Below, in pieces: positions 31,679 through 54,061 of a DNA stretch of 64,000 nucleotides. Source of the stretch: an uncultured Clostridia bacterium (lineage in GTDB: Bacteria > Bacillota > Clostridia > TANB77 > CAG-508); the NCBI GenBank assembly GCA_947632585.1, contig CANRPS010000002.1:8232-72231 (forward strand), given 5' to 3'. The stretch's first letter is position 1. Each line of letters opens with the position of its first letter. The notes beneath the pieces are model-generated. The model made no database searches. It was not told where the DNA came from and saw nothing but the letters and a program-made list of their open reading frames with translations. The position numbers and the translations under genes are program-made.

Positions 31679-34600
31679 ATGAAGACAAAAAGAGAGGTAT
31701 TGAATAAAATTTGTGCCATCTTGATAATAACAGCAATGATGATAACTAACTTTTGGATGGTGGGAGAAGCTGCAGTAAGTTATGCGATTGATGCAGTTAA
31801 AACAAGTAATGCCAATGTTCATATTTCGGCATATTTTGTGGATGAAAATGGCGAAGAAGTAGAAAGTAAGAACAAAAGCATAACTGAAGAGGAAGAAAGC
31901 TTATATATTAAAATAGGGGTTAAAAATGATGGATACTTCAATGGAACAATAAAATTGGAGAATCCTAATTTTGCTGTGAGTAGAGAATATATAGACGAAG
32001 GAATATCTAGCATAACAGATGAAGGAAATATTGTTCTTAAACAGATAAATGCTGGAACAGAAGAAATAGTCGAATTAAAAGTTAACCCTATAAAAAATAT
32101 ATCTGGAGAATCTTTACAAACAGAGACAAAAATAAAATTAGAAGGTGAATACATAAATAGCAAAAATGTTGATAAAGATAAATCAGAAAAAATAACAGCT
32201 GAAACTAAGGTTAAATTAAATTTGATTTCACCAGAAGATAGTAAAATGGATTTGTCAAGTGAAGTCTTCACAAATAAAACCTATGAGATTGATGGAATAA
32301 ATAAAAAATTAGTTCAAATTCTTGTAAGAAGTAAAATAACTGATAATAACTATCCTGTAAAAACTACTAATATTAAATTGAGCAAAATAGATGGAACAGA
32401 AGATGTAAGAGTACAACAAGATAGTAAATATCTAAAATACACAGATTTAGAAGATAGTATAGAAATTAAATTAGAATCAAACGAAGAAAACATATATAAA
32501 GAACAAGAATTAATTGTAACTTACATTTTACCTGAAAATATAGATACTTTAAATAAAGACATAGCTTTAAGTGGAAATATAGAAACATATGATAATAAAA
32601 CATTAAATACAGATATTACAATAACAACAGGCGAAGAAAGGGAAGGTATAGTTTCATATGAAATAGAAAGCGAACAAGATATATATAAAGGTAAATTATT
32701 AATTAATGAAGCAAAAGAATATAAAACAAGCATAAAAGTAAATGTAAATTATCTAGAAGTAGCAAAAGAAATAAAATTTACTGCTGAGCCATCAACATTT
32801 TTATTGGGAAAAGAAAAAATTACAGCAAACAATATATATAAAGAAACAAAAATAAATAAAGATGAATTTTTAAAAATATTTGGAGAAGATGGATATTTAA
32901 CTATAACAGATGAGATGAACACTATAATAGCAAATATAAATGATGATAGTGAAGTAGATGAAGAAGGCAATATTGTAATAAAATATTTAGGTGAAACTAG
33001 AAAAATAGAAATTAACACTAGTGAACCAGTTGCAGTTGGATCTTTAACAATAGAAAATGTAAAAGAAATAAGAGATGCAGGATATGATAGAGAAACTAAA
33101 AATTCAATAACATATTTAAACGAAAAATTGACAGATGGTGAAGGACAAGAAAAAGAAACACAGATTGAATTAAAAAACGCAACAACAGAAGCAACATTAG
33201 AAATTAGCACAGATACATTATCAACATTAGAAACAAACAAAAATGTAAAAATAACAATAAAATTATTAAATAATGATGAAACAAAGGATTTATATCAAAA
33301 TCCAAAACTTAAAGTAAAATTACCAAGTGAAGTAAAAAATCTAAAAGCTAAATGTAAATTATTATACGGAAATGGTTTAACTTTAGGAAACTCACAGATA
33401 ATTAAAGAAAATGATAATTATGTGTTAGATTTGAATTTAGAAGGTACACAAAATTCTTATAATGCAGAAATGGTTGAAGGAACAACAATAATAATATATG
33501 CAGATATGGAATTAGATGAATTAGCACCAAATACAGAGGAAAGTATACAATTACAATATACAAATGAATTAGCAACAAGTTATATATCTGATGGAGCTAC
33601 TGAAGTTCCAGTAAATATTGAGTCTAGAGTTGGTGTATTTGCAATAAACAATATAGAAGCATTAGGAGTTACAACAATAGGAGATGAAGAAACTGAGCAA
33701 GTTAAATTAAGTATATCAGAAGAGCAAAAAGCAGCAACAATTGAACTTGGGGTAATTAATAATGAGGAAACTAATATAAAAGATGCAAAAATATTAGGAC
33801 ATTTCCCAACAAGAGAAAGCGATAATCTAGGAATAACTTTAACAAGTGGAATAAATATTGAACAAAGTGAAGGAATAAAAATTTATTATAGTGACAAAGA
33901 AGATGTAAATAACAATCCAGAAGATACATCTAATAATTGGTATGAAGAAGTAAATTTAAGCACATCAAAGAGTTATTTAATAGTAGTAGACAATATAAAT
34001 AGTAAAGAAAGATTAACAGCAAATTATTCAGTAAATATACCTGGAAGCTTAGATTATGACATGAGTGCAAAAGAAGGATATACTATTACATATACTAATG
34101 AAACAACAAATGAAGTAAAAGAATTAAAAGCAACAGAACTTGATTTAACTACAGGAGCTGGACCAGATTTAGATATGTCTGTAAAAGCTATTGCAGGAAA
34201 TGATATAGTTGGAGAAGGAAAAGATGTTGCAGATGAAACAGGTTTAGATGTTGTAGCAGGAGAAATCATCAAATATGAAGTAACTTTAACAAACAATGGT
34301 ACAGCACCAGCAACTAATGTAGCAGTAAAAGAAATAGTACCAGAACAAGTAGAACCATTGGAATTCGAAAAAACAGATGGAGGAGAATATAGAAAATTTG
34401 TAACATTAACTGGAACTAGAATAGTAACTGAGCCTATGATAGACGAAGATGGAGATCAAATATATACGGAAAAAGATGGAAATTATGAACCACTATTTAG
34501 TACTTATGAAATAGTTGGTTTTGCTCCAGAAGTAAGTAAAGAGATAGATAAAATAGAAGTAGGAGAAACTAAAACTATAGAGTTTTATTTAAGACCTACT

Positions 34601-36751
34601 GAATTGAGTACTGAAAAAATAATTAATGAATTACAAGTTAATTATAATGGAAAAAATGAAACTAAACATATTACTAATGCTGTAAAAAACAGCAATATGA
34701 TTGTAACTTTAGAACCAGGTAATGCAGATAGTGACGTTGATGAATTAGTGCCTGGAAATAAATATTTATTTATATTGAGATTGGACAATAATTCAGAAGA
34801 AACAAAGAATAATGTAAAGATAAATATACTAAACAATGATTTATTTGATATAGATTCTATTGTATATACATCAGGAGACGATGATTTTTTTGAAGAAACA
34901 AATGAATTTATAGTTAGTAAATTAGATGAAAGAATAGGAATTAACATAACAATAATACCAAAAGATACAATAACAACCGGTAATATAATGGATATTTATA
35001 CATCTATAGATTGTGATGGGGAAACATTAAGATCGAATAAAATAACTAAAACTTTAGAAACATCTAATTTGGATATAAATCTTGAATCTAATAATATTGG
35101 TGAAGAGATAGAAATAGGACAAGAAATTAATTATAAAATTACTTTGACAAATGCTGAAGATAGTATGGACTTAAATGAAGTAAAAATTCAAGATACAATT
35201 TTTAAAGATATGAACATAAGTGAAGTTTTAGTAAATGGAGAAACATTATCAACTGAAGATTATTCGATAAATTCAAAATATGATGTAAAAGAAAATGGTT
35301 CTTATACGGAGGATTCAGAAGGAGAAGGTCATTATTATTATTCTTATAGTGAAAACACGTTAGAAAAAATATTAAGTGTGGATACAGGAATTAAAGCTGG
35401 AGAAACGAAAGTATTAGAAATAAAATGTAGTCTTTCAGAAAATATTAGAACTCAAATTAAAGAACCAACAGAAATAAAAAATATTGCAGAAGTAATAACT
35501 GATACAGGAAAAGTTATACAAAGTAATGAAATAATACATCTTTTAAATCCTGAAGAACAAAAATATGAAGAGGAGCATAATCCGGATGATTATGTTACAC
35601 CAGATCCAGAAAATCCGGATAATCCAAATAACCCAAATAACCCAAATAATCCGAACAATCCGAACAATCCGAATAATCCAAATAATCCGAATAATCCGAA
35701 TGATCCAAACAATCCAAATAATCCGGATAATGAAGAAAAAACATATACTATATCTGGAATGGCATGGTTTGATGCAAATGAAAATGGTGAAAAAGAAAGC
35801 GGAGAACAAAGACTAAGTGGAATTACAGCTAAATTAATGAATTTAGATACAAATGAGACTAAAACAACAACAACTTCAGAGAGTGGATTCTATTCATTTA
35901 CAGGATTAACAAATGGAAAATATGTTGTTATATTTGAATATGATACTGAAAAATATATGTTAACAACATACCAAGCTGATGAAATAAGTGCAAATAAAAA
36001 TTCAGATGCAGAAAATGTAACAATGAAAATAGATGGAGAAGAAAGAAAAGTTTCATCAACAGATACATTAACAATAAAAGATAATAGTATTTCTAATATA
36101 GATATAGGATTAGTTTTGGCAAGAACATTTGATTTAGAATTAGCAAAAACTATTTCAAAAGTTACTATTACAAATGGAGAAGGAACGAAGACAACAAATT
36201 ATAATGGAGCAACATATGCAAAAGCAGAAATCAATGCAAAATATGCAGAAGATTCAACAATTGTAGTAGAGTACAAAATAAAAGTATCAAATACTGGGGA
36301 ATTAGCAGGATATGCTAAATCTATAATAGATTACAAACCAAAAGATTTAACATTCGATTCTAGCTTAAATAATGGATGGTATCAATCAGGAGACAATTTA
36401 TATTCAAATAGTTTAGCAAATACAAAAATAGAACCAGGAGAAAGTAAAGAATTAACATTGGTGTTAATAAAACGAGTTACAGAAAACAACATGGGATTAG
36501 TAAACAATCTTGCAGAGATAAATGAAGACTATACAGCTTTAGGAATAGCAGATAAGGATTCAACACCAGGAAATAAACAAAATGGAGAAGATGATTTAGG
36601 ATCAAGCGATTTATCAATAGGTGTAAAGACGGGTGCAGCAGTAAGCTATATTACATTCACAATTTTCTCAATAATGATTTTATTAGCTGTAGCATACTTT
36701 GTAAATTGGAAGTTAATGAAATCAAAAAAATTTATGGGAAAGGAGGAGTAG
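31679..36751 (+). CDS. Giant cell-surface protein (1690 aa) with DUF11 repeats and a Cna-B/SdrD-B-type domain
   Basis: Signal peptide. DUF11-like repeats (VTLTNNGTAPATNVAVKE). NPN nonapeptide-DNA repeat linker. SdrD-B-like segment (SGMAWFDANENGEKESGE...GFYSFTGLTNGKYVV). C-terminal VKTG + hydrophobic + KSKK tail resembling a sortase sorting signal. Confidence 0.75.
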   Translation: MKTKREVLNKICAILIITAMMITNFWMVGEAAVSYAIDAVKTSNANVHISAYFVDENGEEVESKNKSITEEEESLYIKIGVKNDGYFNGTIKLENPNFAVSREYIDEGISSITDEGNIVLKQINAGTEEIVELKVNPIKNISGESLQTETKIKLEGEYINSKNVDKDKSEKITAETKVKLNLISPEDSKMDLSSEVFTNKTYEIDGINKKLVQILVRSKITDNNYPVKTTNIKLSKIDGTEDVRVQQDSKYLKYTDLEDSIEIKLESNEENIYKEQELIVTYILPENIDTLNKDIALSGNIETYDNKTLNTDITITTGEEREGIVSYEIESEQDIYKGKLLINEAKEYKTSIKVNVNYLEVAKEIKFTAEPSTFLLGKEKITANNIYKETKINKDEFLKIFGEDGYLTITDEMNTIIANINDDSEVDEEGNIVIKYLGETRKIEINTSEPVAVGSLTIENVKEIRDAGYDRETKNSITYLNEKLTDGEGQEKETQIELKNATTEATLEISTDTLSTLETNKNVKITIKLLNNDETKDLYQNPKLKVKLPSEVKNLKAKCKLLYGNGLTLGNSQIIKENDNYVLDLNLEGTQNSYNAEMVEGTTIIIYADMELDELAPNTEESIQLQYTNELATSYISDGATEVPVNIESRVGVFAINNIEALGVTTIGDEETEQVKLSISEEQKAATIELGVINNEETNIKDAKILGHFPTRESDNLGITLTSGINIEQSEGIKIYYSDKEDVNNNPEDTSNNWYEEVNLSTSKSYLIVVDNINSKERLTANYSVNIPGSLDYDMSAKEGYTITYTNETTNEVKELKATELDLTTGAGPDLDMSVKAIAGNDIVGEGKDVADETGLDVVAGEIIKYEVTLTNNGTAPATNVAVKEIVPEQVEPLEFEKTDGGEYRKFVTLTGTRIVTEPMIDEDGDQIYTEKDGNYEPLFSTYEIVGFAPEVSKEIDKIEVGETKTIEFYLRPTELSTEKIINELQVNYNGKNETKHITNAVKNSNMIVTLEPGNADSDVDELVPGNKYLFILRLDNNSEETKNNVKINILNNDLFDIDSIVYTSGDDDFFEETNEFIVSKLDERIGINITIIPKDTITTGNIMDIYTSIDCDGETLRSNKITKTLETSNLDINLESNNIGEEIEIGQEINYKITLTNAEDSMDLNEVKIQDTIFKDMNISEVLVNGETLSTEDYSINSKYDVKENGSYTEDSEGEGHYYYSYSENTLEKILSVDTGIKAGETKVLEIKCSLSENIRTQIKEPTEIKNIAEVITDTGKVIQSNEIIHLLNPEEQKYEEEHNPDDYVTPDPENPDNPNNPNNPNNPNNPNNPNNPNNPNNPNDPNNPNNPDNEEKTYTISGMAWFDANENGEKESGEQRLSGITAKLMNLDTNETKTTTTSESGFYSFTGLTNGKYVVIFEYDTEKYMLTTYQADEISANKNSDAENVTMKIDGEERKVSSTDTLTIKDNSISNIDIGLVLARTFDLELAKTISKVTITNGEGTKTTNYNGATYAKAEINAKYAEDSTIVVEYKIKVSNTGELAGYAKSIIDYKPKDLTFDSSLNNGWYQSGDNLYSNSLANTKIEPGESKELTLVLIKRVTENNMGLVNNLAEINEDYTALGIADKDSTPGNKQNGEDDLGSSDLSIGVKTGAAVSYITFTIFSIMILLAVAYFVNWKLMKSKKFMGKEE
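35612..35731 (+). repeat. Tandem 9-bp coding repeat (aat-cc[ag]-aa[ct]) giving an (NPN)n linker
   Basis: About 13 tandem copies inside the giant protein gene. Confidence 0.8.
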
Positions 36752-36761
36752 AAAAGCCATT

Positions 36762-39700
36762 ATGAAAAAGTTAAGTATAAAAAATTTAATTTTAATATTT
36801 ACATTATTAATATTATTTATATGTAGCTTTAGCACAGGAGTACTTGCTCGAGAAATAACATGGAAAGAATTTACAGGACAAAAAGGCCTTTGTCTTGAAC
36901 ATGGTGCGACATTTCGTAAAGATTTAGGATGGGAAGGACACGGAAATATACGTTTTTATGTAGCAAGCTACATAGTGTATTGGAAAAACATCTACTATGA
37001 ACCTTATTGGAAAAAAGTTGATACAGATAACGATGGCATAAAAGATAAATGGAAAGAATTTGAAAGAAAAGTTGTAGAAAATAAAACAACAACGAATCCT
37101 GGACAACTTGGTGGTGACATGCCAGGGATTGAAGTAAAAAATGAGTTTGCGGAAGCAGGATCAGGAATAATACAAGTGCGGATTTGGTAATACGACTGCT
37201 AATACTGTTGGATTTGTATTGCATAATAATGAAGGGTATGGGCATAGCACACAAGATTGGGTTTGGAATAATATAGGAACAGTTTTAAGTGCTTTAGGAG
37301 CAAGACAACCTAGAAATAGAACGGCTAAAACTTCTTTTACAACAAAAATAGCTTCTAATAATGTATCAAATTTGAAGATTGCAGCTAATAGTTCGGAAAA
37401 TGATTTAACTGAAACTATTACAGATAATAGTTCTAAAAATGATATTATAGGTAAAATTGATAATACATCTATAGCAAACACATCAGTAGGTACAGAGTTA
37501 AAAGACTATTTAGACGAAATAGAAGAACCATTTTTATATAATGAAAGTGGCGGTAAAGAAAATGATAATGTAAATAATAATGGAGACAACCCTGTTATAT
37601 CATATAATGATTTATTAGGACCATTTACTATAAATTGGGATGATACTAATAGAAATAAAAATTTTGGAGATAATTATGCAGTTAGTAAATTAACAAGAAT
37701 AACAATTAATTATCTTGATGGAGAACCAGACATCCTTGATATTGAAGATAAAAATAATACATCAAATATAGAGATAGTTCAAGAACAAAATGGAGTGTTT
37801 AATACATTTAAAGAACCATATAAGATAAATAAAAATAAACCTTTTTATATTAAAAATCCAGATTTGGAAAGAGAAGTAACAAGCGTAAAGATTCATCTTA
37901 AAAAAGTAGCAGAATTCCAAACTGCTCATTTTCAAAGATACAATGGAACTACTTCAGATATTAAAGATAAAGCAACAGCCAAAACTCTAATTAGAAAAAA
38001 ACTTATGGAGGATCCTTATACTAAGCGTGGTTATCCTAATATGTGGAATATTGTAGTTACTTCTGTAGAATTGGATGAAGTTTATAAGCCTCAAAATATT
38101 ATGTTTGTAAGTAGCCTTACATTAGAAGGTACAGCTGAATTGGATCTTGAAATAGGTGTACTTGTTAAAAAAGGTGATATAGAGTTAACTAAAGAGGGTA
38201 CTTATAATGATCAACATGAACTATTACCAAATGTAAAATTTGCAGTGTATTGTAATGAGATAGGAAAATATGTAAAAGACATTGAGCTAGTTGAAGGATC
38301 AACAACTCAATATAGAACGACATTTACAGAAAAATTAGAAGAAGCAAAAGTATACACAACAGATGAAAATGGTAAAGTTTTAATAGAAAACTTGTATGCT
38401 GGTAAAGATGATGATATAGAACATTCAGGTGGAGGATATAGCTATAAATTAGTAGAAATAGATGCAGGAGATAACACATATTATATAGATCCACATAAAC
38501 TTGCAAGAGGAGAAAGTACTCATAAAGAAACAACGACTTCTGGAGAAGAGGAAAAATTAGACCCAAATATTGCAACAGGACATGTTGATGTGGATGATAA
38601 ACAATATTGTGTCCTTGATAATGTTACACCATATTATGATAATATAGGTGGAACAAAAGGAAAAGGACAACGTGTAAAAACTTATGTTACAATAGAAGAT
38701 GATAGAAGTTCAGGAGACTTGACAATAGAAAAAGCTGATGAAACATTCCCTGATGAAGTTAAACTTAAAGGTGCTGAATTTAAAATTAAGTTAGTAAGAA
38801 GTGATAATTCAGATGAACCAGAACATGACCTTGGATTAAGTAACTTATGGTTGAAATTACCACCTAATAGTACCGACGGACACTATGATTATAATGATTT
38901 ATTACATGACGAGTATCTAGGAGATGAAGCATCAAGTGCAACATTTGTTACAGATGAAGATGGAAAAATAGACATTAAATGTATTATAAATGGTACTTAT
39001 CACATATATGAAACAAAAGCATCAATAGGATATGATATAACAAAACAATATAATTACGGAAAAGATCCTGATCATCCAACATGGGTTGATTATGGAGAAA
39101 TAACAATAACAACTGGAAACAACCATTTAGAACCTCAATTGCTAAACAGAAAAATAGCAGCAAAACTAGAAGGAGAAGTATGGTTAGATGTACCAGCAAC
39201 AAATAAAAAAGCAACAGAATATGATGGTTTAATATGGACACATAAAGATACAGCTATAGATCCAGGAATAACAGTTAACTTAAAAGATGAAGCTGGAAAC
39301 TTAATGGCAACAACAATAACAGATGGAAATGGATATTGGAGTATAGACAAGAAAATAAATAATACAGAAGATAAATTCAAATCTGATATATATTATTGGG
39401 ATTTAACAAATGCATTTGTAGAGTTTATATATGATAACCAAAAATATGTATGTGTAGATCCATTTGTTGGAGGAGCTGCTCAAGTTAAAGAAAATTCAAA
39501 AGCTAAAGAATATTTATTAGAAGAAAGAGAATTAGATGACAGAAACTTAACAGGTGTAGAAGGTAATTGCCCAGGAATTGCGGTTACAAAACAAAAAGCA
39601 ACAACAGGAATGACACCTTTAGATATAATAGAATTTAGATGGGACAATGAAAACTTTACTTTACCTGAATTAGGATTAACTGGTTATTATAATGTAGATA

Positions 39701-42180
39701 ACTTTACAGTAGAAAATATTAATTTAGGATTATGGGAAAAAATACCACCAACATATAGTATCTTAGAATCACTTCAATATAGTAAGGTATCAGTAAATGG
39801 TTATACTTATACTTACGATTATGTAGATGGAACAACAGGAACAATAGATTCTAGTATGGTTCCAGTAACATATAGACAAACAGGAGCTAAACATTATGGA
39901 GCAAAAGTATATCCATCAGATATAGCATATACAGTTGAAGGAAGAGAAAATGGTATACAAATGTATGTTGTATATAAGATAAATGTTACAAACTCAACTA
40001 CTACAAAATTAGAAGACATTTATGACGAAGTTAGATTATATCTAACATCACTTACAAACACATTTAACTCATACAAATATGAGATATCTACAGACCATAC
40101 AGGAGATGCAAACTGGCAAGGATCACAATATTTCGGATTCTGGGAAAAATCAGAAGATAATTTAGCAAATTATAGAATAGATGATGATGGTAGTGTAATA
40201 TCAGGAGATAAATTAAGTGATGGTATAAAACCAGGAGAAACAGAAAGTGTTTATGTACAATTTAAAGTACAAGAACAATTCTTAAAAGATATATTAGCAG
40301 GAACAATACCTGAAGGAGAAGACTCTTATGCAGTATCTGTTGCTCATTCTATAGGACACCATGTATATACAAGAACAGATAATGTATGGACAAGAGATGA
40401 AAAAGAAGGTAGTGCAACATATTATAAAGATAGTAGAGAAGTAGACCACAATGAAACTACAGGAGATGAATTCTTACACAGATCTTTAGATTATCCTGAA
40501 GATGCAGGAGCATTAGGAATATTATTCTCATTAGGAGAAGAGAGAGTTATATCAGGTACTGTATTTGAAGATATTAAAACTGAAGAAAGTGCAGAAGATA
40601 ATACAAACTTAGGAAATGGATTAATGGATAATGAAGAAGGCAACAGAGGACAGGAAGTAAAAGTAGAATTACTTAATGCTTCATCAAATGAAAATGCTAT
40701 CTTATATCAAAGACCTGGTGATACAACAGCAGAAAAAGTTCAAGATAAAATTGAAAAAGGATATATGATTACAAAAGCAATTACAACAACAAATCCAGAA
40801 GGATATTATGAATTCTTAGGAGTTACTCCAGGAGTATATAAATTGAGATTTACATATTCTAATGGAGACCAAGTAATAATGAATCCTGATGGAACAAAAA
40901 TAACTGCAAATGATTATAAATCAACAATTATTAACACTAATGAAGCAGGAAGATTGATACAAAATGCTGAAGAAACAGCACGAGAAACAATGATAGAAAA
41001 CACTAATATTTATAACAATGCAGTAAAAACTAGAAATTATTCAAATGGTTTAGGCGAAGATATTCAAAATATACAAAGAATTATAGAATGGTATAAATAT
41101 TTGTATAATAATACTCCAGATTTACAATATAACGTGGTAACAGATGATTTGGAAATGAGAAGTAAATTCGAAACCTATGAATATAGTACAGAAGATGGAA
41201 AAACAATAGTAAGAGATGAAGATGGAAATATAGTTGATCCATTCCCAATAATGGAAAGCTATTCACCATATTTCAGTATTACAATAGAAAATGATATAGC
41301 AGACAGAAACAATGTAGATTTATCAACACATGGATATGGACACAATCCAGAATATAGAAAATTCAACTTTGGTTTAATAAAAACTACTGAAACTACAATA
41401 ACATTAGATAAAATCATATCAAATGTTAAATTAACAAATAGTGCAGGAACATCATTAGTACAAGACGATCCTAGAACAGCATTAAATTATGTAACGGCAT
41501 TAGACGACTTATCAGAGGGAAGTAAATATGTAAGAATTGAAATGCCACTAGAAGATATTTTTGGTACAGCACTTCAAACAACATATAGAATTTATATAAC
41601 AAATACTTCTGTAAAAGATTATATAGAAAATCGTGAAGATGCACATTATGGTTATTACTTCAAGTATGGAGATAAAATAACAGGAAATGCATATTTAACT
41701 AGAAAGACAGTAACAGAAGTAATAGACATCCTTGATAATGATTATGATTTATTAGATGATATAGTAGTAGAAAACGTAGAACACCCAGAAGAGTCTAGAG
41801 ATGGAGGAAAACATTCTGAAACTAGTGAAGTAAGGGTAACAGCTGATGAAGAAGGAAACAGATTAATCTTTACAGAATGGACTGGAATTGAAGCAGGAGG
41901 TGTAACTCAAATTGATTACACAGTAGGCGGAATTTTCCAAGAAGATATGGACTTAATATATGATAATAATGCTAAGATTACTAAGATGAAACTAGATTAT
42001 AGTGAAAACTTAAGAACATTATATATTTGGCAAGATTATTCTAAGACAAGATTAATCGTAACACCAGACACTGGTGAAGATAGAAGACCTACATACTATG
42101 TAGTTGGAGCTATAGCATTAGTTATATTAGCAATAGGACTTATTGTTATAAGAAATGGCATTCTTAAGAAAGACGAATAA
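36762..42180 (+). CDS. Second giant surface protein (about 1800 aa) with Cna-B-type domains; its N-terminal signal-peptide ORF is joined to the main ORF at an in-frame CGG
   Basis: ORF 36762-37190 is a secreted N-terminus with a signal peptide. ORF 37219-42180 has no signal peptide. Reading C-GGA at 37179 as Gly gives IIQV-G-FGNTTANTVGFVLHNNEGYG continuity. The C-terminus has a TM plus basic tail. Confidence 0.65.
37179..37181 (+). other. In-frame CGG at a +1 junction (gtg CGG att tgg taa; +1 gives V-G-F-G)
   Basis: Seen in sequence. Same gtg-CGG-att context as the mrdA site. Confidence 0.65.
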
Positions 42181-50559: not shown

Positions 50560-50586
50560 TTTCGCAGAATTAAATATTCTACGAAA
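50560..50586. repeat. Left inverted repeat (27 bp) of candidate invertible promoter 1
   Basis: tttcgcagaattaaatattctacgaaa. Itself a palindrome (10-bp arms, 5-nt asymmetric spacer taaat). Confidence 0.7.
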
Positions 50587-50735
50587 GTTTTATATTAATA
50601 TAATATCAATAAAAGATTTGTTTTACAATAGTTTTTACAAAAAAAATATAAAAAATTACCTTTTTATAAAAAAGTATTTTAATTAATATAAATCTTTGAA
50701 TAGTCTATAAATGAAGTAATATTTCTCTAATGAAT
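50587..50735. promoter_or_regulatory. Candidate invertible 149-bp promoter segment (inverton) upstream of BspA-like gene 1
   Basis: Flanked by perfect 27-bp inverted repeats. AT-rich with promoter-like hexamers. Confidence 0.5.
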
Positions 50736-50762
50736 TTTCGTAGAATATTTAATTCTGCGAAA
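50736..50762. repeat. Right inverted repeat of inverton 1
   Basis: tttcgtagaatatttaattctgcgaaa, the exact reverse complement of 50560-50586 including the spacer and the arm mismatch. Confidence 0.7.
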
Positions 50763-50782
50763 ATATCAAAGGAGAAAGAAAA

Positions 50783-52354
50783 ATGATAAAATCAATAGTT
50801 ACAAGAGAAAAGTGTAAAGTAACAAGTAAAAAAGGAATAACATTAATAGCATTAGTGGTAACAATAATAGTGCTATTAATATTAGCGGGAATATCAATAC
50901 AAATGTTAACAGGACAAAATGGAATACTAAAAAGGGCAGAAGAAGCAAAAATAAAAACAGATTTAGCAAAAGAAAAGGAATTTTTGGATTTTTCAGTAAC
51001 ATCAGCTTTTACTCCAGAAAGTTTATATAGTGAATTTACACTAGATAGTTTACAAACAAGTCTAAATTCTTATTTTGGTAATAATGAAGCAACTGCTGTT
51101 GAAAATCCAGATGGTTCTTTTACTATTAAAATTAAAGAAAGTGGTAATGAATATCAATTAACAAAAACTGGTCAAGAAATTAATGTTAATAAAGTAAAAG
51201 ACGAGCATCCAGCATTTCTTTCTGGAACTGGTTCTGAAGAAGACCCATTTTTAATAGAAAGTATTGAGGATTTAGTATTTTTCTCATATCAAGTAAGAGA
51301 AGGTATTGAAAATTATGAAGGAAAATATGTTGAGCTTGCAACAGATTTAAACTTTTCTTCAAGTAATAGTTACGTTGACCCAAATTGTGAAGATTATAGC
51401 AAGTATGGATACACTGGAAAAATTAAAGAGGAAATTGATAAAAATGGTTTTATTCCAATTGGACAATTAGGTCGTAAAAATGAAACTTCTTATCAAAAAT
51501 ATTTTAAAGGAACATTTGATGGAAAAAAGCATAGTATAATAAATCTAAGTATAAGCAAGAATTTAGAATTAGAAGAAGATGTTAATGGAGACATAGGTTT
51601 CTTTACAATTAATTTCGGTACAATTAAAAATTTAAACCTTATTTCAAATTCATCTATAAATTTAAAAACGTCAAATCAGTTTGCTGCAGTAGGCTTTTTA
51701 TGTGGAGTAGTTGGGATGAAGGATGTTGGAGATGGTTTTATTGAAGATTGTAAAGTTGGTGGTAACTTAACAGCAAATATTATAGGATATGCTTTTAATG
51801 TTGGTGGACTTGTTGGGGCGTTAAATGGAGAAATTAAAGGTTGTATTAATAGTACAAATATAACAATTGAGAGTAATCTTTCTGGAGCATTAAGAGTTGG
51901 AGGAGTTTGTGGAGCTATGGATATTAATTCAGTTGTTGAAAATTGTTATAATACAGGAAAACTTGCTATTGGTACTAATGTTAGCGGATACGTTGGAGGT
52001 ATAACAGGCATTATTGGACAAACAGCAAATAGTATAAAAAACGTGTATAATATTGGAAAAATAGAAGAAACATCAACTTCTTCTAGTAGAGGGCTTAATA
52101 TTGGTGGAGTAGTTGGGTTTAAAGATGGATCATCTTCTTGTGTTGTTGAAAAAACATATAGTTTAGATGGCTTAATAACAACACATAATTCAAATTCGTT
52201 AATAACAGATACAGGTTACGAGAAAAAAACAAACAAGGAACTTTCTGGTCAGGCTGGTGTTACACTTTTAAATACTGGTAATGATAACCCTATTTGGGTG
52301 GAAGATACAAATAATATAAATAATGGGTATCCAATTTTAAAATGGCAAGTTTAA
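50783..52354 (+). CDS. Surface protein with prepilin-like N-terminal anchor and Gly/Val-rich repeat body (paralog 1)
   Basis: N-terminus KKG|ITLIALVVTIIVLLILAGISI resembles a type IV prepilin cleavage/methylation segment (Ala instead of Glu at +5). Body is repetitive (GGVxG ... NIGG). First 59 aa are almost identical to the ORF at 52712. Confidence 0.6.
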   Translation: MIKSIVTREKCKVTSKKGITLIALVVTIIVLLILAGISIQMLTGQNGILKRAEEAKIKTDLAKEKEFLDFSVTSAFTPESLYSEFTLDSLQTSLNSYFGNNEATAVENPDGSFTIKIKESGNEYQLTKTGQEINVNKVKDEHPAFLSGTGSEEDPFLIESIEDLVFFSYQVREGIENYEGKYVELATDLNFSSSNSYVDPNCEDYSKYGYTGKIKEEIDKNGFIPIGQLGRKNETSYQKYFKGTFDGKKHSIINLSISKNLELEEDVNGDIGFFTINFGTIKNLNLISNSSINLKTSNQFAAVGFLCGVVGMKDVGDGFIEDCKVGGNLTANIIGYAFNVGGLVGALNGEIKGCINSTNITIESNLSGALRVGGVCGAMDINSVVENCYNTGKLAIGTNVSGYVGGITGIIGQTANSIKNVYNIGKIEETSTSSSRGLNIGGVVGFKDGSSSCVVEKTYSLDGLITTHNSNSLITDTGYEKKTNKELSGQAGVTLLNTGNDNPIWVEDTNNINNGYPILKWQV

Positions 52355-52442
52355 AATTAAATTTACATTTTTCAAATATGTTTTTTTAGTATTAGACATA
52401 TTTTATAATTCAGATACTCTTTTACAATGAATTAATATAATC

Positions 52443-52471
52443 ATAACCGCACGTAAAATGTGCGGTTATGA
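52443..52471 (+). other. Strong GC hairpin between paralog 1 and inverton 2 (possible terminator/insulator)
   Basis: ataaccgcac-gtaaaat-gtgcggttat. Confidence 0.4.
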
Positions 52472-52486
52472 TTGTATATAAAAAAA

Positions 52487-52513
52487 ATTCGCAGAATTAT
52501 CTATTCTGCGAAT
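52487..52513. repeat. Left inverted repeat of inverton 2
   Basis: attcgcagaattatctattctgcgaat. Confidence 0.7.
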
Positions 52514-52664
52514 TTTTCTTTTATTAATGATATCAATAAAATATTTATTTTACAATAGTTTTTACAAAAAAAAATATAAAAAAATATATTTCTATAAAAA
52601 AGTATTTTAATTAATATAAATCTTTGAATAGTCTATGAATAAAGTAAATATTCCTTTATTAAAT
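52514..52664. promoter_or_regulatory. Candidate invertible promoter segment upstream of BspA-like gene 2
   Basis: Flanked by perfect inverted repeats. The segment is homologous to 50587-50735. Confidence 0.5.
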
Positions 52665-52691
52665 TTTCGCAGAATAGATAATTCTGCGAAA
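52665..52691. repeat. Right inverted repeat of inverton 2
   Basis: tttcgcagaatagataattctgcgaaa, the reverse complement of the left copy including the spacer. Confidence 0.7.
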
Positions 52692-52711
52692 GTATCAAAG
52701 GAGAAAGAAAA

Positions 52712-54061
52712 ATGATAAAATCAATAATTACAAGAGAAAAGTGTAAAGTAACAAGTAAAAAAGGAATAACATTAATAGCATTAGTGGTAACAATAATAGT
52801 GCTATTAATATTAGCAGGAATATCAATACAAATGTTAACAGGACAAAATGGAATACTAAAAAGAGCAGAAGAAGCTAAAATAAAAACAGAAATTGCTACA
52901 GAACAAGAACAAATTGAATTTGCTGTAGCTGAAGCACTAACAAAAGAAAATTTATATAATGAACTAACAAAAGAAAACTTAAAAGATGAATTAGTAAAAT
53001 TGTTTGATGAAAAAAATATAAATTTAGTTGATAATTCTAATGGAACTTTTTTATTAGAGCTTTTAGAGGAAAATAGAAAATATATTATTTCTAATGAAAA
53101 GGTGAAATTAATAGATTTAGAAGAAATTTTTAAAAACGCTAAAGCTCCAGATGAACAACAGATAGTAAGCAAAGATATAATAGGAATAGGTGCATTTGGA
53201 GAACAAGTTAATATGGATTTATGGGAATATACTTTATTAGAAGATGGTTCAATAGGATTAAATGATGAAATTGCTCTACAAGGTTCAAGTGAAGGGAGAA
53301 GTAGTGGATATTTAGGAAATTTAAATGAAGATGGTACAATCATTGGTGTAATTCCAATGTATATTAGTATAGATAAAGAAAAGAACTTTAGACCTGTTAC
53401 AAGTTTGGTACATACATTTTATAAATTAGATATTGTTAAGGCACCACCTATTCCTAGTACAGTTGTTAGAATGTCAGTAGCTTTTTATTATTGTGAAAAA
53501 TTAACTGAAGCTTGTGATGTTCCAAATAGTGTTGAAACTATAAATTATACTTTTTCAAATTGTAGTTCTCTTGAAAATATGCCTAATATTGGAAAAAATG
53601 TTAAAAACATGATTGGAACTTTTCAGGATGATACTTCTTTAAAAAATGTAAAATCTTTACCAGACTCTGTGACTGATTTGACTGGTGCATTTTTTGGATG
53701 TGATCATATTTTAAGTATACCAGAGATTCCTAAAAATGCTATAACACTCAAAAATGCTTTTACAAATTGTCAAATGGCGGTTAAAGGTCCGACTACTATT
53801 CCAAATAAAGTTGAAAATTTGACTGATGCATTTTATAATTGCCACAAATTAGTAAATCCTCCTAAAGAGATACCAGCTAGTGTAAAAAGTATGGATAGAG
53901 CGTTTAAAAATTGTAATTCATTTAATGGAACAATAGAAGTCAATGCAAATCCAGATAGTTATGCTGATTGCTTTATGGGAATACCAAGAGAAAATTTAAC
54001 ATTAATTGGTTCTAGTGACAATTTAGATGAATTAAAAGAACAATTGAAAGTTACAGAATAA
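52712..54061 (+). CDS. BspA-type leucine-rich-repeat surface protein with prepilin-like N-terminal anchor (paralog 2)
   Basis: Same 59-aa N-terminus as paralog 1. C-terminal LRR_5/BspA-like repeats (VPNSVETINYTFSNCSSLENMPNIGKNV ... IPKNAITLKNAFTNC). Confidence 0.7.
   Translation: MIKSIITREKCKVTSKKGITLIALVVTIIVLLILAGISIQMLTGQNGILKRAEEAKIKTEIATEQEQIEFAVAEALTKENLYNELTKENLKDELVKLFDEKNINLVDNSNGTFLLELLEENRKYIISNEKVKLIDLEEIFKNAKAPDEQQIVSKDIIGIGAFGEQVNMDLWEYTLLEDGSIGLNDEIALQGSSEGRSSGYLGNLNEDGTIIGVIPMYISIDKEKNFRPVTSLVHTFYKLDIVKAPPIPSTVVRMSVAFYYCEKLTEACDVPNSVETINYTFSNCSSLENMPNIGKNVKNMIGTFQDDTSLKNVKSLPDSVTDLTGAFFGCDHILSIPEIPKNAITLKNAFTNCQMAVKGPTTIPNKVENLTDAFYNCHKLVNPPKEIPASVKSMDRAFKNCNSFNGTIEVNANPDSYADCFMGIPRENLTLIGSSDNLDELKEQLKVTE

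Follow-up and report, generated by a model that had tools for sequence, protein, structure and literature searches.

Background

The locus at positions 52488–52690 raises two questions: whether the inverted repeats directly upstream of a gene for a BspA-type LRR protein delimit a promoter segment that can be turned around by site-specific recombination, and how such a switch could be operated next to a second one with nearly the same repeats. Promoter invertons flipped by tyrosine recombinases are represented by fimS, the RecV switches of C. difficile and the Tsr systems of Bacteroides. The window, i.e., the whole stretch of DNA analysed (64 kb), originates from an organism with a G+C content of 26.7 %, which was met in only a few ENA and Logan assemblies and, judging from SASP and YpeB genes in the flank, forms spores. 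A scan of the JGI metagenomes with the right half-site plus leader (ATTCTRCGAAARTATCAAAGGAG) retrieved 0 matches, indicating absence of the organism from these metagenomes.

Organisation of the recombination sites

The locus is composed of the following features:

52488–52512, no strand: left recombination site, TTCGCAGAAT-TATCT-ATTCTGCGAA, with 10-bp palindromic arms and an asymmetric centre
52666–52690, no strand: right recombination site, TTCGCAGAAT-AGATA-ATTCTGCGAA, fully reverse-complementary to the left site
52513–52665, no strand: putative invertible segment of 153 bp with 10 % G+C; the start-to-start spacing of the sites is 178 bp, i.e., ~17.0 helical turns
52527–52555, minus strand: predicted sigma-A promoter TTGTAA-17-TATCAT with TG extended -10, directed to the left through the left site and away from the gene
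52480–52487, minus strand: A8 tract, corresponding to U8 in the minus-strand transcript and forming, together with the left-site hairpin, a predicted intrinsic terminator of the outward OFF transcript
52697–52714, plus strand: RBS AAAGGAG and ATG of the putatively controlled gene, beginning 6 nt past the right site
52712–54061, plus strand: putatively controlled gene, coding for a 449-aa protein with a type IV pilin-like N-terminus and BspA-type LRR repeats

The preliminary description reported a pair of 27-bp repeats to be perfectly reverse-complementary. The quoted 27-mers were located at 52487–52513 and 52665–52691, and perfect complementarity applies to their central 25 bp (52488–52512 and 52666–52690), not to the outermost base on each side (a...t versus t...a). 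Including mismatches, the inverted arms reach 30 nt at 93 % in a repeat search. The inverted spacer was recovered as described, with TATCT on the left and AGATA on the right forming an asymmetric 5-nt centre within each palindromic 25-mer; since each 25-mer is palindromic, the two sites differ solely in the direction of this centre. The same layout of palindromic arms around an asymmetric centre is found in loxP and FRT sites. From the end of the right site it is 6 nt to AAAGGAG and 21 nt to the ATG (52712), which replaces the distance of 20 bp upstream of the RBS given earlier.

Four sites were detected in the window with the site pattern (up to 3 mismatches), as opposed to none in 100 dinucleotide-preserving shuffles. 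All four fit TTCG[CT]AGA-N9-TCT[AG]CGAA; with respect to the stricter 10+5+10 pattern, two sites are free of mismatches and the other two carry the allowed C/T variant. The pair at 52488–52690 is flanked by AAAAAAAA on the left and AGTATCAA on the right, and a target-site duplication is accordingly absent.

Enclosed segment, predicted promoter and RNA structures

The segment of about 150 bp noted before was confirmed: it measures 153 bp and shares homology and orientation with the 151-bp segment of the neighbouring sister pair, the two segments having G+C contents of 10–13 %. The size class of 178–179 bp, to which the present locus belongs, is found at 7 loci of two unrelated genomes.

The predicted minus-strand promoter is situated ~14 nt inside the left site. 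Matching the consensus at 9 of 12 positions plus TG, it lies in DNA of 90 % A+T, and the region yielded 27 promoter matches where 17 were expected. It is the only promoter common to both window loci (TTGTAA-17-TATCAT here and TTGTAA-17-TATTAT in the sister, both with TG), and its placement and direction resemble those of the promoters with at least 9/12 matches found in 18 of the 20 short invertons examined.

RNA folding predicts for the left site on the OFF transcript a hairpin of -20.5 kcal/mol (z = -8.6) followed by U8, and for the right site in the ON leader a hairpin of -13 kcal/mol without a U tract. A search of the region against Rfam gave sub-threshold hairpin look-alikes only. Between the stop codon of the first gene and the left site, a further strong hairpin (window 52435–52477) has 18-nt arms that are 94 % complementary. 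It is devoid of a T tract on the plus strand. Termination of the upstream gene may therefore depend on the left site together with TTTTTCTTTT, a terminator that inversion would alter.

Sister switch and putatively controlled genes

The second pair of sites in the window and its associated features are:

50561–50585, no strand: left site of the sister switch, TTCGCAGAAT-TAAAT-ATTCTACGAA
50737–50761, no strand: right site of the sister switch, TTCGTAGAAT-ATTTA-ATTCTGCGAA
50600–50628, minus strand: predicted sister promoter TTGTAA-17-TATTAT with TG, pointing away from its gene
50783–52354, plus strand: gene putatively controlled by the sister switch, coding for a 523-aa protein with the same pilin-like N-terminus and GLUG motifs

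Identical arms and different spacers had been ascribed to the two loci. The centres indeed differ (TATCT/AGATA versus TAAAT/ATTTA), whereas the arms are not strictly identical: both inner arms of locus 1, the sister switch, are changed (C to T and G to A). The left sister site is likewise terminator-like and is followed by U6. Both loci belong to a duplicated block with 91.6 % identity over 418 bp, which reaches into the first ~60 codons of both genes.

The assignment of the downstream gene to the BspA-LRR type is supported by an LRR_5 domain (E = 8e-11) in the product of 52712–54061. The N-terminus common to both proteins (...KKGITLIALVVTIIVLLILAGISI...) stayed below threshold against the prepilin N_methyl model (E = 0.009); its homologues are mostly short ComGC-like pilins, a few of which pass N_methyl. 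The homology search with this N-terminus carried no information on switch orientation.

Elsewhere in the window, two very large surface proteins of 1690 and 1653 aa with SdrD_B and SpaA-type domains are encoded at 31679–36751 and 37219–42180, and a sortase gene is located at 778–1359. The window site scan revealed no inverton sites near the genes for these two proteins or the sortase.

Distribution of the site family

Scanning one genome per species with the pattern TTCGYAGAATNNNNNATTCTRCGAA retrieved at least 115 stretches. The site occurs in more than 100 genomes, and the matches listed belong nearly all to Lachnospiraceae, other Clostridia and Erysipelotrichales. Among 2.9 million viral contigs, a single site match was found, compared with the at least 115 stretches in bacterial genomes. 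After adjacent blocks of one contig had been merged, 34 loci with two exact sites were counted among the matches listed. All of these 34 exact pairs, and likewise 34 further degenerate pairs in which the partner has a few mismatches, are inverted and have reverse-complementary centres, i.e., 68 of 68 pairs among the matches listed. More distant members of the recombinase family are flanked by pairs with the arms TTCGTAGA...TCTACGAA, which reduces the invariant arm to 8 bp and extends the variable centre to up to 9 bp.

Twenty short ORF-free invertons (18 from other genomes and the two of the window) with start-to-start spacings of 136–421 bp were examined. In 18 of them, a sigma-70-type promoter with at least 9 of 12 matches is directed outward through one site, at a distance of between a few and 40 nt from it within the segment; in L018 and L109 no promoter above threshold was found. 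Four short invertons harbour a perfect TTGACA-17-TATAAT, and TTGAAA-17-TATAAT is present in the 178-bp class. The adjoining genes code for NusG-like proteins at the head of apparent polysaccharide loci, an MBOAT acyltransferase and, directly downstream of the inverton in L101, an LRR_5 surface protein. The window is most closely paralleled by L054, where a 605-aa protein with a canonical prepilin N-terminus (N_methyl) is encoded directly downstream of a family inverton.

The NusG-like genes (PF02357) adjoining short invertons were located at L013:1197–1715, L082:4188–4715, L090:3462–4034, L098:2107–2685 and L104:4886–5503; in L098 an aminotransferase-like gene follows. In Lachnospiraceae loci, genes for TnpB/Cas12f-like proteins of ~435–455 aa have their 5' end within 350 nt of an inverton site at 27 sites (e.g., L029:6212–7522, L065:2711–4081, L111:3625–4995, L094:1856–3160 and L099:4412–5752). 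They match PF07282 and NF040570 (the latter below cut-off) and often precede a gene for a conserved ~850-aa protein without Pfam match. These inverton-adjacent TnpB-like genes look phase-variable.

The spacings of the short invertons (136, 176, 178, 179, 190, 200, 211, 221 and 231 bp) correspond to 12.95 to 22.0 turns at 10.5 bp per turn. The underlying set comprises the window pairs 50561–50761 and 52488–52690 as well as L008, L012, L013, L014, L017, L018, L021, L027, L054, L067, L082, L090, L098, L104 and L109. A Rayleigh test on the unique spacings, performed post hoc on a small sample, gave R = 0.84 and p of about 5e-4. Spacing by nearly whole turns suggests a requirement for both sites to be on one face of a tight DNA loop.

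In the metagenome-assembled genome CAYTKT01, the contigs L052, L069 and L086 (sites at nt 29–55) and L076 have the same initial flank and site (centre GAAGT) and then diverge; the contigs L031 and L084 of CAYQBE01 represent a further case of a common start with diverging continuation. These contigs suggest that one site can have more than two partners in a shufflon-like manner.

Recombinases associated with the sites

Among the matches listed, 27 of the 34 exact pairs enclose a recombinase gene, with 1.1–3.9 kb between the sites and a product of ~320–395 aa. The Phage_integrase and SAM-like domains of the enclosed proteins identify them as tyrosine recombinases. No curated NCBIfam cut-off was reached by the cassette recombinase, its nearest solved relatives being XerA and Tn1549 Int, and the recombinase family comprises 7950 relatives at E ≤ 1e-30.

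No such gene was detected in the 64-kb window when all its six-frame ORFs (≥ 40 aa) were searched with a hidden Markov model (HMM) of 10 cassette recombinases (nothing below E = 0.1). The 10 kb beyond each window end contain neither a recombinase among the called genes nor further sites, so that the locus is surrounded by about 84 kb without recombinase. A+T-type amino-acid composition served to rank the best 120 of the 7950 relatives; of the four that were looked up, none came from samples of the window organism. Other short family members are likewise without recombinase between or near their sites and have yet been found flipped, which makes action of the recombinase in trans plausible.

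An "empty" allele was observed at L045:3485–3509, where a single site joins the outer-left arm via the left centre (TCATT) to the outer-right arm. At the same place, L011 (2819–4470) and L020 (3029–4583) carry a 1.5-kb recombinase cassette, the flanks being 93–95 % identical. Cassettes are thus gained or lost precisely, an outcome that simple recombination between inverted sites cannot yield.

Inversion in related loci and orientation of the present locus

Orientation changes are evident from the comparison of related genomes. Between L065 and L111, the flanks have 94 % identity on the same strand, whereas the 362-bp segment between them has 93 % identity on the opposite strand, with the change of strand occurring inside the sites. 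The pairs L099/L040, L044/L071 and L071/L083 likewise display a segment inverted between conserved flanks. The promoter is directed away from the adjacent gene in L065 and into the gene in the inverted L111.

Assemblies contribute a second type of evidence. In the cultured isolate 1xD42-87, the segment forms a separate contig of 2294 bp with the site at both ends, and two other contigs terminate in that site, the centre being identical; such a pattern typically arises when the reads contain both orientations. Among the matches listed, 18 of 143 exact sites are located within 60 nt of a true contig end. One Logan contig of 1407 bp consists of exactly one recombinase cassette from site to site, and in dozens of recombinase clusters the longest contig measures merely 1.35–1.5 kb. 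Judged from these sequence comparisons, the segments of this family invert.

For the window locus itself, all public contigs with either of the two genes or the upstream GlyRS gene are window-like, the opposite orientation being found in none of them. In the assembly ERZ27249546, one contig ends exactly at 52512 and the next starts at 52458, resulting in an overlap of 55 nt, which we take to equal a standard SPAdes k-mer size. Position 52513 is the first base at which flipped and unflipped sequences diverge (T versus A). This assembly fork at the left site fits a minority of flipped cells in the population, or a strain variant.

A contig of 522 bp (P0001/L120; ENA ERZ27249080, low coverage) was considered as a flipped copy and rejected, as it joins both paralogues instead. 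Compared with window 50729–50980 and 52662–53244, it connects the right site of locus 1 and the following first ~150 nt to the body of the locus 2 gene and has an internal deletion. It represents either a strain that lost the first gene by homologous recombination between the 418-bp repeats or an assembly chimera.

Locus-specific centres

The expectation that the spacer differs from locus to locus was borne out in every multi-locus genome compared, including the window (2 of 2 loci), Otoolea muris (3 of 3; centres ACGTT, AACTA and CACGT) and strain 1XD21-72 (4 of 4; ACATG, CACGT, TAGTT and ATCTT). The smaller multi-locus cases also have a different centre at each locus. The centres always match within a pair, and a change in one site must therefore be paralleled in its partner. 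In the Cre/lox, Flp/FRT and lambda Int systems, strands are exchanged between identical crossover regions only. Loci with different centres would, by analogy, be prevented from recombining with one another.

Proposed mechanism

Taken together, window 52488–52690 is probably a promoter inverton that would be flipped by a tyrosine recombinase encoded elsewhere and appears to be in the OFF state with its predicted promoter facing away from the gene, the sister locus being built alike and possibly switched independently. The earlier proposal of an invertible switch, one of several with common arms and different spacers, thereby gains support at the level of the family, i.e., from inverted matched pairs, enclosed tyrosine recombinases, outward promoters and both orientations in relatives.

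According to this model, dimers of a tyrosine recombinase encoded at another place in the genome would occupy the two lox-like sites, and strand exchange within the asymmetric centre would flip the 153-bp segment. The inverted state would display the junctions ...AAAAAAAA-site-AATTTAATAAAGG and ...TAATAAAAGAAAAA-site-AGTATCAAAGG. In the window orientation, the promoter transcript would enter the terminator formed by the left-site hairpin and U8 (OFF). Once the segment is inverted, transcription from this promoter would pass the right-site hairpin, where a U tract is missing, and continue into the RBS and the gene (ON). The sister locus 50561–50761 should work in the same way with its different centre. 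From the conserved promoter pointing away from the gene in both loci, we infer that both switches look OFF. The two genes could then be switched independently, and the recombinase would neither delete nor invert the DNA between the loci.

Beyond the window, a more general scenario is put forward tentatively, as possible rather than established. A lox-like recombinase-and-site system may have spread through gut Clostridia and Erysipelotrichales as a set of genome-wide independent switches, in which nearly invariant arms would serve one trans-acting recombinase and locus-specific, concertedly changing centres would block inter-locus deletions and large inversions. Cassettes would be gained and lost precisely and may seed new switches; the shortest switches would be helically phased and use the site hairpin as OFF terminator.

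Alternative explanations

The proposed state of the switch depends on the choice of promoter, and the opposite assignment deserves consideration: the switch would be real and the window would represent its ON state, with a plus-strand promoter (TTTACA-18-TATATT at 52561–52590, or the weaker TTGAAT-17-AATATT at 52624) driving the gene and inversion silencing it. The stronger of these matches, with 10/12, formally exceeds the 9/12 plus TG of the minus strand, and in each sample the majority state corresponds to the assembled orientation. The match is specific to locus 2, however, as it is not conserved in locus 1, and it lies within an A-run; it was treated as a chance occurrence in DNA of 90 % A+T. 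Since 18 of 20 short invertons have a strong promoter beside one site that fires outward, as the minus-strand promoter does here, and since the U tract in the left flank would terminate exactly the minus-strand transcript, an ON state in the window is considered unlikely. The locus could also be a decayed, non-autonomous (MITE-like) remnant of a mobile recombinase cassette, which no longer flips and has kept its terminal repeats by descent. Such an origin would agree with the precise gain or loss of cassettes (the single composite site of L045 versus the 1.5-kb cassette in L011 and L020), with the occurrence of the family in many unrelated contexts and with the lack of a recombinase near the window loci. 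We nevertheless regard it as very unlikely: both window pairs are perfectly complementary over 25 bp, and the two loci differ at two centre positions and one arm position, meaning that changes were concerted within each pair. Moreover, ORF-free short versions are flipped elsewhere (L065 versus L111), the flanks are without target-site duplication, and the spacers vary between loci of one genome, unlike those of transposon copies.

It appears extremely improbable that no recombination takes place at all and that the palindromes act as bidirectional terminators, or as operators of dimeric regulators, flanking a fixed promoter region. Reverse-complementary centres in 68 of 68 pairs among the matches listed would be unexpected of independent palindromes, and the enclosure of recombinase genes in 27 of 34 exact pairs (matches listed) as well as the coincidence of sites with inversion breakpoints and contig breaks point to recombination. 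Each site does fold into a stable hairpin, the left sites with their flanking A and T runs score as intrinsic terminators, and some solitary sites in other genomes lie between A and T runs, yet no Rfam family was found above threshold.

Other classes of elements were rejected. A serine-invertase system (Hin/Gin/Mpi, 2-bp crossover core) is at variance with the Phage_integrase and SAM-like domains of the associated enzymes and with the odd-length centre, which offers no symmetric 2-bp core. An insertion sequence or MITE was dismissed on the grounds of the missing target-site duplication, the different centres of the two copies and relatives that differ by orientation at a fixed place. Attachment (att) sites of a phage or ICE integrase were discarded since the pairs are always inverted and not direct, and since only 1 match was obtained in 2.9 million viral contigs.

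Significance and comparison with known systems

The element type, a phase-variation promoter inverton, is known and fairly ordinary, the family-level features being moderately novel. If the model is true, a low-G+C gut Clostridium toggles two tandem pilin-like adhesins (one with BspA-type LRR, the other with GLUG motifs) independently and thereby generates four surface states from one genotype, with a bearing on adhesion, immune evasion and phage resistance. The 25-bp site represents a simple and very specific search handle for phase-variable loci in uncultured Firmicutes that works without reads; targets found by the site search are NusG-led polysaccharide loci, LRR adhesins, pilin-like proteins and TnpB-like genes.

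A literature search for the site sequence gave primer coincidences only. Neither the palindrome with its variable centre nor the spacer rule nor the terminator role was found described in the literature. The hCom2 study using PhaseFinderDC lists an "inverton group 139 / invertase group 35" with 33 invertons, 32 of them in Clostridia, from 17 strains; a 25-bp repeat is given as example, nearly all members have a nearby tyrosine recombinase, and flipping was recorded at the read level (PMC11892184). Compared by description and not by motif, group 139 and the window family agree in taxon, 25-bp repeat length and recombinase type, and the spacings of the two published examples (231 and 241 bp; PMC11892184) are in line with the helical phasing of the window family. 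The two are probably identical. Neither a palindrome with a variable centre nor a spacer rule is described in that study (PMC11892184).

The RecV switches of Clostridioides difficile (cwpV, flgB, cmrRST) are similar in that they occur in a Gram-positive anaerobe, consist of short inverted-repeat segments upstream of surface or motility genes and are served at several loci by a distant tyrosine recombinase, an action in trans that is proposed here as well. They differ by their imperfect, locus-variable sites, whereas the arms of the window family are nearly invariant across orders and the centre alone varies, and by the location of the recombinase, which in the window family is often inside the invertible segment. 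E. coli fimS (FimB/FimE) corresponds to the present switch as a short invertible promoter segment for a pilus or adhesin gene that is acted upon by a tyrosine recombinase and set ON or OFF by promoter direction. With 314 bp, 9-bp repeats, a need for IHF and Lrp and adjoining recombinase genes, fimS differs from the window switch, which has 153 bp, 25-bp lox-like palindromes, no nearby recombinase and a site hairpin that apparently doubles as terminator. The invertons for capsular polysaccharides and surface proteins of Bacteroides (Mpi serine invertase; Tsr) are also numerous per genome, have a common repeat motif and control surface structures, and their UpxY-led capsule loci parallel the several loci of the window family that begin with a NusG-like gene; phylum, repeat motif and recombinase are different, the main CPS invertase being a serine recombinase.

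With respect to the sites, not the proteins, the closest likeness is to Cre/loxP and Flp/FRT, which also have inverted binding arms around a short asymmetric spacer. In these systems, heterospecific spacers (lox511, lox2272, F3, F5) block recombination, as is proposed here for the different centres. The arms are 13 bp long in Cre/loxP and Flp/FRT and 8–10 bp here, where the centre measures 5–9 bp, and the heterospecific sets of the window family are natural instead of engineered. Natural sets with the same arms and different spacers would thus be ready-made orthogonal recombination sites for a single recombinase.
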